Positions 59,752 through 64,000 of a stretch of 64,000 bases of DNA are shown piece by piece. Positions within the stretch are counted from its first letter, which is position 1; every line of letters begins with the position of its first letter. The notes under the pieces were generated by a model. The model was not told where the DNA came from. It was given only the letters and a program-made list of their open reading frames with translations, and searched no databases. The translations under genes and the position numbers were made by a program. Source of the stretch: an uncultured delta proteobacterium (GTDB lineage Bacteria; Myxococcota_A; Polyangia; Polyangiales; B10-G4); the NCBI GenBank assembly GCA_963727445.1, contig CAVSGI010000020.1:704001-768000 (forward strand), read 5' to 3'.

Positions 59752-59847
59752 GGGAGCAGAACCCGACTGGGGGCCCCATGATTCCGCTGCGCGGACGAGC
59801 GAGGCACGTTGCCGGATCGCGGTCGGCTATATAGAGTCGCCGGCCCG

Positions 59848-60261
59848 ATGGCATTTTCGAGCGACATCCGAGTTCGATTCGGGGACGAGGACCATGCGGG
59901 GATCGTCTACTACCCCCGCTTCTTCGACTTCTTCCACCAGGCCTTCGAGGACTTCTTCGCGGACAACGGTGTCCCCTACAAGGAGGTCCTCGACGTCGAC
60001 AACTGCGGCTGGCCGTCGGTGCATGCGGAGGCGGACTTCGTCAGCCCGGCGCGCTTCGGAGACACGCTCACCGTCGAGGTCGAGGTCACCCGCATCGGGG
60101 ACAAGTCGGCCACCTTCGCCTTTCGAGGCGTGAACCGCGCCCAGGACCGGCTGGTGCTGAAGGGCTCGGTGACCTGCGTCTGCATCCGCATGGACACCTT
60201 CGAATCGCAGCCCATCCCGGACAAGTATCGGGCCATGTTCGAAAAGCACCTGGCGGGCTGA
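59848..60261 (+). CDS. Acyl-CoA thioesterase (4-HBT/YbgC hotdog family)
   Basis: VRFGDEDHAGIVYYPRFF, ADFVSPARFGD. Confidence 0.9.
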   Translation: MAFSSDIRVRFGDEDHAGIVYYPRFFDFFHQAFEDFFADNGVPYKEVLDVDNCGWPSVHAEADFVSPARFGDTLTVEVEVTRIGDKSATFAFRGVNRAQDRLVLKGSVTCVCIRMDTFESQPIPDKYRAMFEKHLAG

Positions 60262-60330: not shown

Positions 60331-62142
60331 ATGAAGGCCCTGATCAAGGTCGGCTACGGCTGCAACGACCACTGCTCGTTCTGCCACACGTTGGACGTCC
60401 GGCACGTCGACGGCGAGGCGCGCGAGATCCACGAAAAGATCGAGCGGGCCAAGACGCTCGGACACTCGATGGTGGTGCTCTCCGGCGGCGAGCCCACGAT
60501 CCGCCCCGAGCTGCTCGCTTGGGCTGATCACGTCGTGCGCCTCGACATGGACTTCGGCCTGGTCACCAACGGCCGGATGCTGAGTTACGGCGAGCTCACC
60601 GAGAAGCTCCTCGCGCGGCGGCTGAAGTACGTCTATCTCTCGCTCCACGGCGGGACGGCGAAGATCCACGACCTGATGGTGCGCTCCGAGGCCTTCGACG
60701 AGACCTATGGGGCGCTCGATAACCTCTCGGGACGCGGGCTCGACCTCACCGTCAACTGCGTCATCACCAAGCACAACGTCGACCACCTGAAGGGTGTGGT
60801 CGATGCCGTGCTGAAGTATCCGGACCTCGGGCTGAACTTCTCGATGGTGGAACCGAAGGGCGGCGGCGACGCGCTCTTCGAGCATCTGATGCCGCGGATC
60901 TCCTACGTCGCCGACAAGGTCCGCGAGGCGATCCGTTACGGCGACGCCGAGGTCGCGTCGCGAGGCGCCGTGGGGCCGCGCTTCAGCCACGGCGCGATCC
61001 CACTGTGCCTGATGCCCGGCGACGAGCGTCGGTACAGCGATCTGAAGAGCCACCGCTTCGCCGCCATGACCGAGATCGGAGAGCCCGATTTCTATCCGGT
61101 GGACGATCTCAACAAGGTGCAGCCGCGCGACAAGTGTCGCGGATGCTCGCTCAGTGGCGCATGTCCCGGTCTCTACAAGGGGTACGTCGAGGTTTTCGGA
61201 GACGACGAGGTGAAGCCGGTCTTCGACCGCCCGCGGAGCAACTCCTTCAACTACGTCTTCGAGGCGCGCGTCGCGCCCCGTCCCGATGGTGCATGCCCGC
61301 TCTACGCCGATGGAATCACTCCGTGGGATCGCGGCCGCCACCTCTTCGTCGAGCACGCGGGTCGCATCGGGCGCTACGTCGCACGCACGCGCGACTTCTC
61401 CGACGTCGAGATCGCCGAGCTCAAACACGACCTCGGGCAGATCTACGCCGATGTCTCGCGCAAGCCCGCGCCGGACGATTTCGCCAAGGACCTGGTGCAG
61501 CTCGAGCGGAGCGAACGCTGTGACGGATGCGAGCTGCGAGAGCGCTGCACCGGGATGTTCACGCCGCGCATGGAGGACGTCTTCACCCGCGACGATGCGC
61601 GCGTGCGCGCTCTGATCGGGACGCTCGAGGGGACTGTGCTGGACGTGGGATGCGGGGAGGGGCCGTACGAGGACGTGCTCGAACCGCGCGCCCGCTCGGG
61701 CGCCATCGAGTACGTGGGCCTCGAGCCGGACGCGGGGCGCGTGACCGCGCTCAGGGCGCGGAGGCCCTGGGCGACCATCGAGGAGGGGCGCGCCGAGGAC
61801 CTGAACGGGAGCCACGAGGCTCGCTTCCTGCACGTGCTCGTGCTCCGGAGCTGGAACCACCTCGAAGATCCCGAGCGCGCCCTCGATCGCATCGCCGCGA
61901 GCCTCGCGCCTGGAGGCACGCTCACCGTGGTCGACAACGTCGCCTTCGGCCTCGCCCGCTCAGCCGAAAAGACGCGCCGCGCCGAGTCCTCGCGCGCAGG
62001 CTTCGAGCACTACCGCAACGACGACGCCAGCGATGCGCACCGCCGCATCGCCGCGCGAGGCTTCACGCTCATCGAGCGCCACGACGTCGCCCCCGGCACC
62101 AGCAACCAGTGGCTCCTTCGCTACGCCAAGGGGACGGTCTAA
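60331..62142 (+). CDS. Radical SAM enzyme (HxsC-like) fused to a class I SAM methyltransferase
   Basis: CNDHCSFC, LSGGEPT, TNG, SLHG; IPLCLM; CRGCSLSGACPG and CDGCELRERCTG; VLDVGCGEG, GLEPD. Confidence 0.85.
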   Translation: MKALIKVGYGCNDHCSFCHTLDVRHVDGEAREIHEKIERAKTLGHSMVVLSGGEPTIRPELLAWADHVVRLDMDFGLVTNGRMLSYGELTEKLLARRLKYVYLSLHGGTAKIHDLMVRSEAFDETYGALDNLSGRGLDLTVNCVITKHNVDHLKGVVDAVLKYPDLGLNFSMVEPKGGGDALFEHLMPRISYVADKVREAIRYGDAEVASRGAVGPRFSHGAIPLCLMPGDERRYSDLKSHRFAAMTEIGEPDFYPVDDLNKVQPRDKCRGCSLSGACPGLYKGYVEVFGDDEVKPVFDRPRSNSFNYVFEARVAPRPDGACPLYADGITPWDRGRHLFVEHAGRIGRYVARTRDFSDVEIAELKHDLGQIYADVSRKPAPDDFAKDLVQLERSERCDGCELRERCTGMFTPRMEDVFTRDDARVRALIGTLEGTVLDVGCGEGPYEDVLEPRARSGAIEYVGLEPDAGRVTALRARRPWATIEEGRAEDLNGSHEARFLHVLVLRSWNHLEDPERALDRIAASLAPGGTLTVVDNVAFGLARSAEKTRRAESSRAGFEHYRNDDASDAHRRIAARGFTLIERHDVAPGTSNQWLLRYAKGTV

Positions 62143-62520
62143 ACTTTTCAACTTTCCGTGAGCGGGCCGTTCGACCGCTACGGCAAGGGGACGGTCTAGA
62201 CTTTTCAACTTTCTGTGAGCGGGCGGTTCGACCGCTACGGCAAGGGGACGGTCTAGACTTTTCAACTTTCTGTGAGCGGGCGGTTCGACCGCTACGGCAA
62301 GGGGACCGGCAAGGGGACGGTCTAGACTTTTCAACTTTCTGTGAGCGGGCGGTTCGAGGCGAGAAAGTTGAAAAGTGTAGACCGTCCCCGTCAGAGGCGC
62401 CGTCCCCGTCAGAGGCGCCGTCAGAGGCGGGAAAGTTGAAAAGTGTAGACCGTCCCGTCCCCGTCAGAGGCGCCGTCAGAGGCGGGAAAGTTGAAAAGTG
62501 TAGACCGTCCCCGTCAGAGG
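62119..62520. repeat. REP-like cluster: four direct and three inverted copies of GGGGACGGTCTANACTTTTCAACTTTC
   Basis: Direct cores at 62130, 62187, 62244, 62313 (57-bp period for the first three); inverted cores at 62363, 62431, 62486. Confidence 0.9.
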
Positions 62521-62969
62521 CCGACCTTCATGCCGGCGGCGTCGAGCTGCTTGCGGACGCGGGTGGCCTGGGCGGCGTCCGAGATGGCGACGGCCGAGAA
62601 GGCGGTCGCCATCACGGCGGCCGGGACGCTGGCGAGGCCGAGGAGGCTGAAGATGCCGTGGGCCACGGCGTAGAGCTGCCAACCGGCCGCGCAGAAGAAG
62701 GCCAGGCCGGCGATCACGGTGCCGCCCACCGCGGCCCAGGTCCGTGCGCGGTAGGTCATCAGCGCGAGGATCAGGAGCGCGGCGGCGAAGTTCAGATGCA
62801 CGATGGGGACGAGCTCGAGAAGCTCCCGGGTGAAGCGGGTGGTGAAGAGTTGGATGGAAGTGAAGGCCAGGAGCGCGCTGGTGACGCCGAGCAGCGCCGC
62901 CGCCACCTTCACCTTCCAGGTCCCCGCCGCCTTCGAGACGTCGATCTGGTCGAACGCTTCCACCACCAC
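62514..62969 (-). CDS. Small four-helix membrane protein
   Basis: Four hydrophobic segments; GC3 bias; start among three tandem GTG codons. Confidence 0.6.
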   Translation of the reverse strand: MVVEAFDQIDVSKAAGTWKVKVAAALLGVTSALLAFTSIQLFTTRFTRELLELVPIVHLNFAAALLILALMTYRARTWAAVGGTVIAGLAFFCAAGWQLYAVAHGIFSLLGLASVPAAVMATAFSAVAISDAAQATRVRKQLDAAGMKVGL

Positions 62970-63008
62970 CCGCCGGATAGCATGGGGTGGGCTCCGGTGC
63001 CTGTCGGC

Positions 63009-63043: not shown

Positions 63044-63355
63044 GTGGCCGACGGGGACAAAGGCGACGAGCTTCCCTCCTTCCGCGCCGAGGCCGGGGAT
63101 CGGCTGGTGGGCGAGCAGAAGCAGATCTCCGATCGGGCACGGGAGAACGCGGACAAGAACGTCGGCGGCTCGCCGCCCTCGGATCTGGTGCAGCGGGGTG
63201 GCCAGCACTGCTCCCATGCCTCCCATGGGTCGCATGGCTCCCACGGGTCGCACGGCTCCCACGGGTCGCACGGCTCCCACGGGTCGCACGGCTCCCATGG
63301 CTCCCACGGGTCGCACGGCTCCCATGGGTCCCACGGCTCCCACGGGTCCTGGTAG
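63044..63355 (+). CDS. hxsA: His-Xaa-Ser repeat precursor peptide 1 (HxsA-like): HCS-HAS-(HGS)14-W
   Basis: 103 aa; leader aligns with precursor 2; 16 HxS triplets at 63206-63349. Confidence 0.85.
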   Translation: MADGDKGDELPSFRAEAGDRLVGEQKQISDRARENADKNVGGSPPSDLVQRGGQHCSHASHGSHGSHGSHGSHGSHGSHGSHGSHGSHGSHGSHGSHGSHGSW

Positions 63356-63384
63356 CTATCGGCCCACCGCCCCCCCACCCCTCC

Positions 63385-63413
63385 GTGACAGCCCTCACGA
63401 GCCGGGTTAGACT
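63385..63413 (+). promoter_or_regulatory. Putative sigma70 promoter of Hxs precursor 2 (leaderless)
   Basis: GTGACA(63385)-17 nt-TAGACT(63408), then 8 nt to ATG 63422. Confidence 0.6.
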
Positions 63414-63421
63414 ACCGTCTC

Positions 63422-63715
63422 ATGGCCGACGATGAGAGCAGCCAGGACGAGGGCGCAGAGGAAGAGGTCCCTTCCTTCAAGGCCGAGGCCGCGGATCGGT
63501 TGGTGGCGGAGCAGAAGGACATCTCCGAGCGAGCGCTCGAAAACGCCGATGATGGCGGCTTCGCAGGCGATGGTGGCCAGCGTGGAGCGCAGCACTGCTC
63601 CCATGGGTCCCACGGCTCGCACGGGTCTCACGGCTCGCATGGATCCCACGGCTCGCACGGGTCTCACGGCTCGCACGGGTCCCACGGCTCGCACGGGTCC
63701 CACGGCTCCTGGTAG
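63422..63715 (+). CDS. hxsA: His-Xaa-Ser repeat precursor peptide 2 (HxsA-like): HCS-(HGS)12-W
   Basis: 97 aa; acidic leader; 13 HxS triplets at 63593-63709. Confidence 0.88.
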   Translation: MADDESSQDEGAEEEVPSFKAEAADRLVAEQKDISERALENADDGGFAGDGGQRGAQHCSHGSHGSHGSHGSHGSHGSHGSHGSHGSHGSHGSHGSW

Positions 63716-63770
63716 CGTGCCCGCTTGGTCGGGTAGGCTCAGGCCCCACCCGCTACCCCCTCGGTGAACC

Positions 63771-64000
63771 TTGAAGCTTCCCGGAATTCCCGAAGAGCTC
63801 GCCGGCGCGGACCTCGAGCAAGGCTCCGTGCACGTCGTCGTCGATGACACGGTCTATCCCCTCGAAGCGATCTACGGCGCGAGCTTCGTCTTCATCGACC
63901 GCGCTTACGTCTTCGTCGATCGGCCGACCGCAGGCAAGTATCGCATCGTCCTCACGCCGAAGAAGGGCGGGGTCGACGAGGAAGGCATGAAGGCGCTCGT
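63771..64000 (+). CDS. hxsD: His-Xaa-Ser system protein HxsD-like, 3' partial (absent from the ORF track)
   Basis: Manual translation from TTG: MKLPGIPEELAGADLEQGSVHVVVDDTVYPLEAIYGASFVFIDRAYVFVDRPTAGKYRIVLTPKK..; the YPLEAIYGASFVFIDRAYVF motif resembles HxsD. Confidence 0.75.
   Translation, partial: MKLPGIPEELAGADLEQGSVHVVVDDTVYPLEAIYGASFVFIDRAYVFVDRPTAGKYRIVLTPKKGGVDEEGMKAL

Follow-up and report, generated by a model that had tools for sequence, protein, structure and literature searches.

A window of 64,000 nucleotides (C20:704001-768000, in a genome of 9.47 Mb and 27 contigs) was found to carry at its downstream end the precursor genes of what appears to be a Polyangia-type myxobacterial system for maturing peptides of the HxsA4-type His-Xaa-Ser kind (HXS family), with its genes rearranged. 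We put the probability of this reading at about 80%. The proposed set comprises two tandem HxsA4 precursor genes, an HxsD-like gene, the radical S-adenosylmethionine (SAM) genes hxsB and hxsC4 beyond the window, and a gene for a radical SAM/methyltransferase fusion protein upstream. The family is already catalogued under NCBIfam names and is widespread in the order; apart from a second precursor copy and a gene order that is permuted and split, the locus is ordinary.

The precursor pair is real and not a product of chance or low-complexity noise. Precursor 1 (63044-63355, +; 103 aa) and precursor 2 (63422-63715, +; 97 aa, ATG start) scored 87.2 and 92.4 bits, respectively, against NCBIfam model NF038313 ("His-Xaa-Ser repeat protein HxsA4"; cut-off, 55 bits). 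They were the only matches to this model in the genome. Noise can be set aside because both exceed the cut-off, while 0/14 control genomes reached it. The GTG codon at 63044 was taken as the start of precursor 1 because the resulting N terminus resembles those of its relatives. Read in this way, precursor 1 consists of a 54-aa acidic leader (pI 4.66) followed by the core HCS-HAS-(HGS)14-W, and precursor 2 of a 57-aa acidic leader (pI 4.05) followed by HCS-(HGS)12-W. A preliminary description of this DNA, made from the letters alone, had reported two adjacent open reading frames (ORFs) with a shared leader, 16 and 13 HxS units, and a terminal Trp. The listed ORFs, a BLASTP alignment of the leaders and junctions (37/59 residues identical, 63%; E 1e-14), and regular-expression counts all agree with it: the units are uninterrupted, number 16 in precursor 1 and 13 in precursor 2 when the junction HCS is taken as the first unit, and are followed by a single Trp and the stop codon. 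Of the 29 codons in a leader block shared by the two, 14 are the same in both, 7 show synonymous differences, and 8 alter the residue. Third-position GC content (0.86 and 0.80 for precursors 1 and 2) is similar to that of neighbouring genes, and the repeat DNA, in which codons are mixed, shows a period of 18 nt. Each core His of both precursors lies in an S-H-G-S context, which gives 12-15 identical sites. The sole Pfam match of the precursors was to the low-complexity Collagen family, and the canonical HxsA model was not among their NCBIfam matches at E <= 0.01.

The genes expected to act on these precursors were recovered next to them and farther downstream. An HxsD-like gene, which the preliminary description had placed 55 nt after precursor 2, indeed begins with a TTG codon at 63771 after the stop at 63715. 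Its 5' part occupies 63771-64000 (+), and the full gene encodes 156 aa and ends 241 nt beyond the window. The protein matched TIGR03976 with 44.7 bits (E 1.3e-11; 87 of 90 profile positions; cut-off, 50 bits), was the single match to this model in the genome, with 0/14 control genomes matching, and is 48-63% identical to orthologues that precede hxsB in closer relatives. Just beyond the window end lies a single-copy hxsB (C20:768348-769952), whose product scored 550 bits against TIGR03978 (cut-off, 370 bits) and covers positions 4-466 of 466. A single-copy hxsC4 (C20:786427-787464; match at 786433-787440) follows 16.5 kb beyond hxsB, with 624 bits against NF038332 ("radical SAM protein HxsC4"; cut-off, 500 bits). 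No ORF of the genome reached the cut-off of 267.9 bits for HxsC itself (TIGR03977), the best of 23 matches being HxsC4 with 89.8 bits. The partners proposed earlier, HxsB and HxsC, were thus half right: HxsB and a second radical SAM enzyme are there, but that enzyme is HxsC4 and not HxsC, and it is distant. In all, A4 is present in two copies in the genome, and HxsB, HxsD, and HxsC4 in a single copy each. The order of genes is thioesterase-like, radical SAM/methyltransferase fusion, A4, A4, HxsD, HxsB, with HxsC4 far downstream. A CX3CX2C motif is present in HxsB, HxsC4, and the fusion enzyme alike, accompanied in each by one or more CX2CX5C auxiliary-cluster motifs.

The upstream radical SAM/methyltransferase gene (60331-62142, +; 603 aa) was overlooked in the preliminary description and is part of the set. 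Pfam assigns Radical_SAM to residues 6-158 of its product and Methyltransf_23/11/25, a class I methyltransferase region, to residues 432-582. The protein has one CX3CX2C and two CX2CX5C motifs, and its best NCBIfam match was HxsC4, with 96.8 bits against a cut-off of 500. We searched 201 genomes of the same order, the unpublished genome G122 being included in these tallies, and found fusion homologues (E <= 1e-80) in 63; of these 63 matches, 11 comprised the methyltransferase half only and came from a single family. With G122 excluded, 60 of the 62 genomes with a fusion homologue also had HxsB, and the two genes lay on the same contig within 25 kb in 33 of the 62 (within 10 kb in 28 and within 5 kb in 21). 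The fusion gene stands directly upstream of A4-D-B in locus L115 and of D-B-A4-C4 in L069 and L077, two named Myxococcota records with a compact run of fusion-D-B-A4-C4. In a protein atlas, the fusion fell into two clusters, of 94 and 58 members, mostly from Myxococcota and under generic names. Judged by these sequence comparisons, the fusion is a conserved companion of hxsD-hxsB in the order, newly recognised here, and a frequent rather than an obligate one, since a homologue is missing from 20/80 HxsB genomes and lies on another contig than hxsB in 27/62 genomes, mostly fragmented assemblies.

The same search of the 201 genomes placed the locus within a large family. HxsA4 passed its cut-off in 74 genomes, HxsB in 79, and HxsC4 in 54; HxsB was present in 72 of the 74 A4 genomes, A4 in 51 of the 54 C4 genomes, and all three together in 50 of the 201. 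Some families carry the set almost throughout: in f11, A4 and HxsB were each found in 9/9 genomes and C4 in 8/9, and in f22, HxsB was found in 26/32. The leader also occurs in public records under the titles Polyangiales, Polyangiaceae, Sandaracinaceae, Sandaracinus, or Myxococcota. To compare the precursors themselves, 39 relatives' loci and the present one were surveyed (L023, from G122, excluded), and the 43 ORFs obtained were reduced to 31 distinct precursors, both present precursors counted. Two of these have 12 units, eight have 13, seven have 14, nine have 15, three have 16, one has 18, and one, which runs to a contig end, has at least 28. Since 29/31 have 12-16 units, the cores that the preliminary description had called unusually long are the norm, and 16 and 13 are typical values. 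Short cores of 4-5 units occur naturally among relatives, including metagenomic ones that share the leader and carry only four units, and tandem A4 pairs occur elsewhere as well (13 + 18 units; L049 and L050).

An expectation of orthologues with the same leader was also borne out, the order-wide pattern being the leader motif L-P-S/T-F ... E..I/V.S/A.RA, the junction Q-H-C-S-H, and the terminal Trp. The Q-H-C-S-H junction is invariant in the 31 distinct precursors, and the leader motif is likewise conserved. A junction motif QRGxQ, suggested earlier from the present pair, did not hold up: relatives carry LLAQ, IPAQ, or FFGQ in place of QRG, so that only Q-H-C-S-H is conserved. In precursors, HxsB, and HxsC4 above their cut-offs, and in leader motif, QHCSH junction, HGS units, and final Trp, the present locus therefore matches the catalogued HxsA4/HxsC4 variant.

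Other forms of the precursor were seen among the relatives. A second A4-like subtype (L052, L058, and L060; L061-L064) has a longer, different leader and ends in H-G-Q-W; it follows divergent HxsD and HxsB genes (33-46% identity) and precedes two other radical SAM genes instead of HxsC4, and one genome carries both subtypes on different contigs. In family f16, A4 matches fall within extended open frames of 140-277 aa that hold several repeat blocks; the precursor with 28 or more units at a contig end (L040) belongs to this family, whose genomes have the methyltransferase half only, as a separate gene beside hxsB. In L081, L086, and L109, HGS/HxS precursors ending in GSW or GQW likewise stand beside HxsD and HxsB, but they differ in having a basic N terminus and a hydrophobic, signal-like segment; a tblastn search of these three loci with the fusion gave only weak matches to the radical SAM half (64-119 bits) and none to the methyltransferase half. 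Extra radical SAM paralogues (25-33% identity) flank A4 loci in most relatives.

The layout of the set varies widely. Among 20 loci of 20 kb (L041-L060), hand-picked from the HxsA4 table with a preference for long contigs, D-B-A4-C4 was contiguous in four and nearly so in a fifth, A4(-A4)-C4 occurred without D or B in three, D-B-A4 without C4 in three, and the divergent subtype ending in GQW, with its two other radical SAM genes, in three. In four loci (L042, L047, L048, and L056), A4 was an orphan, in that Hxs enzyme genes were lacking within 10 kb of it. L041 has D-A4, then a gene for the methyltransferase half, with C4 8 kb off, and in L054 the neighbour of A4 is a different radical SAM gene. 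Compact D-B-A4-C4 or fusion-D-B-A4-C4 runs are found in L043, L045, L046, L051, L069, and L077. In contrast to the commonest HxsA4 layout, D-B-A4-C4, the order here is A4-A4-D-B, with C4 apart from hxsB and the precursor duplicated. L115 (genome G023) shares the present order, with the thioesterase gene, the fusion, one 13-unit A4, HxsD, and HxsB in sequence and C4 on another contig, and its enzymes are 64-74% identical to those here. The same-genus genome G013 (590 contigs, 86% complete) differs from the present order, with HxsD directly followed by A4 and HxsC4 on another contig; HxsB was not found in this assembly. Across the 53 genomes with HxsC4 above cut-off (G122 excluded), A4 and C4 lie within 1.5 kb of each other in 28, 1.5-25 kb apart in 5, including this one at 19 kb, 2 Mb apart on the same contig in 1, and on different contigs in 17, with no A4 listed in the remaining 2. 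From this survey, including L115, we conclude that split and permuted layouts are normal in the order.

These distributions bear on an alternative, namely, that the peptides are unmodified cytoplasmic His-rich metal buffers and that the nearby radical SAM genes act on something else. The precursors' lack of an export signal and the orphan A4 genes in 4/20 picked loci would suit such a role. However, the tight co-occurrence of A4 with HxsB and of C4 with A4, and the placement of A4 within 1.5 kb of C4 in 28/53 genomes, run counter to it, and the genomes with orphan A4 genes still have HxsB and HxsC4 elsewhere. Metal buffering would also leave the conserved leader and the invariant QHCSH junction unexplained, and we consider it very improbable.

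The closest characterised relative is the canonical HXS system of Pseudomonadota, HxsD-HxsB-HxsC-HxsA, which has been described as an antiphage system (Li et al., Nat Commun 2026, PMC13128918). According to that paper, HXS of E. coli blocks phage DNA entry, and the 214-aa HxsA is processed at its N terminus and accumulates in the periplasm only if HxsB, HxsC, and HxsD are all present. A change of +8 Da, which the authors read as +C/-4H, maps to the sequence S-H-R-S-S of HxsA, in which both flanking Ser residues and the His are essential, and HxsC and HxsD pull down together (PMC13128918). The same paper reports that the reaction could not be reconstituted, that its chemistry is unsolved, and that HxsA alone is insoluble when overexpressed; 99.7% of HXS systems lie in Pseudomonadota, 27.2% of Klebsiella genomes have one, and the order D-B-C-A holds in 99.6%. 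The statement in the preliminary description that the mature product is uncharacterised is hence outdated for the canonical system and stands for the HxsA4 branch, for which we found no paper.

The present locus resembles canonical HXS in its equivalog-level HxsB, its HxsD-like protein, its combination of two radical SAM enzymes with a small adaptor, and the S-H-x-S setting of its His residues. It differs in that HxsC is replaced by HxsC4, with only the subthreshold TIGR03977 match given above; in that the target is a peptide of ~100 aa with an acidic leader and 13-16 near-identical HGS units; in the addition of the fusion; in the A4-A4-D-B order with distant C4 in place of D-B-C-A; and in its lineage, Myxococcota.

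On the strength of the shared S-H-x-S context, we propose the following sequence of steps for the HxsA4 set. The conserved leader would recruit the enzymes, and HxsB, together with HxsC4 bound to HxsD, would install covalent His/Ser-centred modifications in the core. These may be of the kind found on S-H-R-S-S of E. coli HxsA (+8 Da), possibly repeated over the 12-15 identical S-H-G-S sites. The fusion enzyme would add a lineage-specific, methylation-type tailoring step, and the leader would probably be removed. Complex prediction weakly suggests the pairing of HxsC4 with HxsD: the score was 0.53 (runs of 0.53, 0.60, and 0.43), the best of three controls scored 0.00, the runs share at least 65% of their contacts, and partner pLDDT (predicted local distance difference test) is at least 72. 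The mark for this score is reached by 116/157 solved complexes and 2/215 mismatched pairs, and at values of 0.60 or below by only 18/157 solved complexes along with both passing mismatches.

Several observations weigh against an intact HxsA4-type maturation system. HxsC4 was below cut-off in 23 of the 74 A4 genomes, and here it is unlinked to the precursors. HxsD falls 5 bits below a curated cut-off that belongs to a model built for the canonical system, so that of the profile checks suggested earlier for the precursors and HxsD, the precursors alone passed theirs. The model of HxsD (mean pLDDT, 76.9) shows an alpha/beta domain and a long helix, and it gave no informative solved-fold match as an adaptor-type or leader-binding fold: Foldseek returned nothing from the Protein Data Bank at E <= 0.001 (the best hit being an RNA polymerase subunit-like chain at 3.2e-3, TM 0.36-0.47), and the best hit of a wide search with VIA (Z 7.1; root mean square deviation, 3.6; 84 residues aligned) falls in the common-arrangement range. 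The precursors have no signal peptide and no membrane segment. Reading onward past the window, as had been advised, brought to light hxsB and hxsC4 and no protease or exporter gene in the annotated flanks; leader removal and export are thus assumptions carried over from E. coli. The fusion is absent from, or unlinked in, the genomes noted above. Finally, our literature search returned no paper naming HxsA4 or HxsC4, although the supplements of PMC13128918 may list non-proteobacterial HxsA matches.

Given the kinship with canonical HXS, the locus may itself be an antiphage defence, in which a matured His-repeat peptide hinders phage DNA entry. This fits the match of HxsB to the canonical enzyme at equivalog level and the S-H-G-S setting of each His, the canonical block of phage DNA entry being reported to need HxS repeats and the S-H-x-S context (PMC13128918). 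Nevertheless, HxsA4 is without the peptidoglycan-binding domain and export signal of the 214-aa HxsA, and basic residues are not enriched in its HGS units as they are in the repeats that the paper describes. PADLOC 2.0.0, whose library predates HXS, returned only generic kinase and viperin-like radical SAM similarities for 18 neighbouring proteins. The flanking genes are housekeeping-like, with no integrase or transposase family match among the proteins scanned. Furthermore, the near-universal presence of the set in families f11 and f22 stands apart from the 27.2% of Klebsiella genomes reported for HXS (PMC13128918). This family pattern suggests, without being decisive, long vertical retention rather than a patchy defence island, and it agrees with a retained physiological function at least as well as with a defence island, although it amounts to a lean only because kin are not independent. 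On these grounds, we regard an antiphage function as a serious candidate that is nonetheless rather unlikely.

Alternatively, the product could be a triceptide-like peptide made on ribosomes and modified after translation (RiPP), in which each H-x-S unit is closed as a His-to-Ser cyclophane with a loss of 2 Da, yielding a secreted poly-macrocyclic or metal-chelating product. A poly-His core binds Ni, Cu, or Zn by general chemistry, which would suit the chelating version. The layout of leader plus repeat core and the SPASM-type radical SAM enzymes also recall the triceptide maturases XyeB and YhhB and the enzymes HtkB and HaaB, which likewise act on short repeated motifs of leader-guided peptides; HtkB and HaaB are reported to cross-link His C2 to a side-chain carbon (PMC11499958). 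However, the motif here is His-Gly-Ser, and the sole Hxs modification measured is +8 Da, not -2 Da (PMC13128918). HxsB scored 61 bits against YhhB (NF041707; cut-off, 445) and 47.6 bits against XyeB (TIGR04496; cut-off, 450), lower than its 94-104 bits against thioether-forming maturases (CcpM, QhpD, and PapB, 100-104), and all of these values are far under their cut-offs and reflect the shared core. The cyclophane analogy drawn in the preliminary description therefore lacks sequence support, HxsB being no closer to cyclophane-forming than to thioether-forming maturases. Since neither an exporter, a protease, nor a signal peptide was found in the annotated flanks or the precursors, a secreted triceptide seems distinctly doubtful.

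Within the HxsA4-type reading, the role of the product can be addressed only tentatively. A cell-physiological function, in which a polyvalent array of modified His residues acts in a metal- or pH-linked manner, is our provisional preference. By analogy with HXS, a phage or DNA-entry barrier is conceivable but less probable, and a scaffold that releases small units is less probable still; other roles account for the rest. A more specific and speculative proposal, which we think improbable as a whole, is that the HxsA4 set of Polyangia would be no defence island but a five-gene pathway (fusion, HxsD, HxsB, HxsA4, and HxsC4) retained by vertical descent and acting iteratively on 12-16 identical S-H-G-S sites. 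The product would then be a poly-His polymer, methylated and uniformly modified, or else a single small His-derived unit that cleavage frees in a dozen or more copies per precursor. If so, release of small units would be the bacterial equivalent of multi-core precursors, and the narrow range of units (12-16 in 29/31), in DNA prone to slippage, would reflect selection on product length or yield.

The main value of the locus is practical, as a simple repeat substrate with a defined gene set for Hxs chemistry; as a finding, it counts as a routine member of its family. With the chemistry of the HXS family unsolved, HxsA4 precursors offer a simpler substrate, being short, soluble-looking peptides that repeat one tripeptide 13-16 times, and a site-specific modification should give a regular mass ladder because the core is one repeated tripeptide. 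The work also defines this branch's five-gene enzyme set, which contains a methyltransferase fusion that the canonical system lacks. In addition, Hxs components may be scattered in a genome, so that absence from one locus is no proof of absence from the system.

Features around the precursors give some indication of how the locus is organised. A sigma-70-like promoter match (63386-63414, +; GTGACA-17-TAGACT, 9/12 positions) lies just upstream of precursor 2; it is a consensus match only, the single one in 4.3 kb, where shuffled sequences averaged 0.2. A sigma-54 promoter near the precursors was considered and rejected, with no match there to the consensus, and counts of sigma-54-like sites were at chance in the precursor and hxsC4 regions (5 versus 4.06 expected and 3 versus 3.96). 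Twenty-four listed sequencing runs proved uninformative on expression or habitat: none contained at least half of the sampled words, the best, a DNA run, reaching 0.23 and RNA runs 0.06.

In the stretch C20:783549-787934, hxsC4 comes directly after two genes, one for a HAMP histidine kinase and one for a sigma-54-dependent response regulator; ~45 nt ahead of the kinase gene is a sigma-54-like site with a single mismatch. A functional pairing of this kinase and activator with HxsC4 was not upheld: an activator homologue was beside C4 in 0/9 other unlinked C4 loci, and a weak kinase match was found in one. Because the neighbours of C4 are not conserved in those nine loci, they lend no support to co-regulation of hxsC4 with the precursors, a further point against the proposed system. 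Downstream of hxsC4, a 157-aa protein without a family match recurs once only, beside the orphan A4 gene of L042.

Upstream of the fusion lies a 4HBT-type thioesterase-like gene (59809-60261, +; 150 aa; Pfam 4HBT_2, 65.4 bits). Orthologues (54-64% identity) adjoin the fusion in 3/4 relatives' loci examined (L115, L116, and L118), and none was found in the 20 picked loci; it is a possible accessory gene. Between the fusion and the precursors are two tandem arrays, at 62119-62306 (57-bp unit x 3.3, 96% matches), overlapping the 3' end of the fusion gene, and at 62382-62511 (55-bp unit x 2.0, 100% matches). These are followed by an antisense ORF (62514-62981, -) for a small membrane protein of ~155 aa with four hydrophobic segments, which had no NCBIfam, Pfam, or PADLOC match and no tblastn match in 20 relatives' loci; a longer reading that starts farther upstream (294 aa) and runs into precursor 1 on the opposite strand is probably spurious. 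Compared with L115, the present locus has, besides the duplicated precursor, ~0.9 kb more before the precursors, holding the two arrays and this gene, and the stretch looks inserted here because fusion and A4 are only ~40 nt apart in L115.

After hxsB, a stretch of low GC content (C20:770000-775500; 61-67% in 500-nt windows versus 68.8% over C20:750001-805000) contains a 1170-aa ORF whose product weakly resembles MtsC, a MYXO-CTERM cohesion protein (49.8 bits; cut-off, 350), along with ORFs of low third-position GC content and no family match. This may be acquired DNA that has parted hxsB from hxsC4. Finally, radical SAM genes are unusually dense at C20:764000-852000: of the 23 matches to the HxsC model in the genome (E <= 0.001), 11 fall in this 88-kb interval, among them a divergent pair (794084-796007) and ORFs as large as 658-1018 aa.

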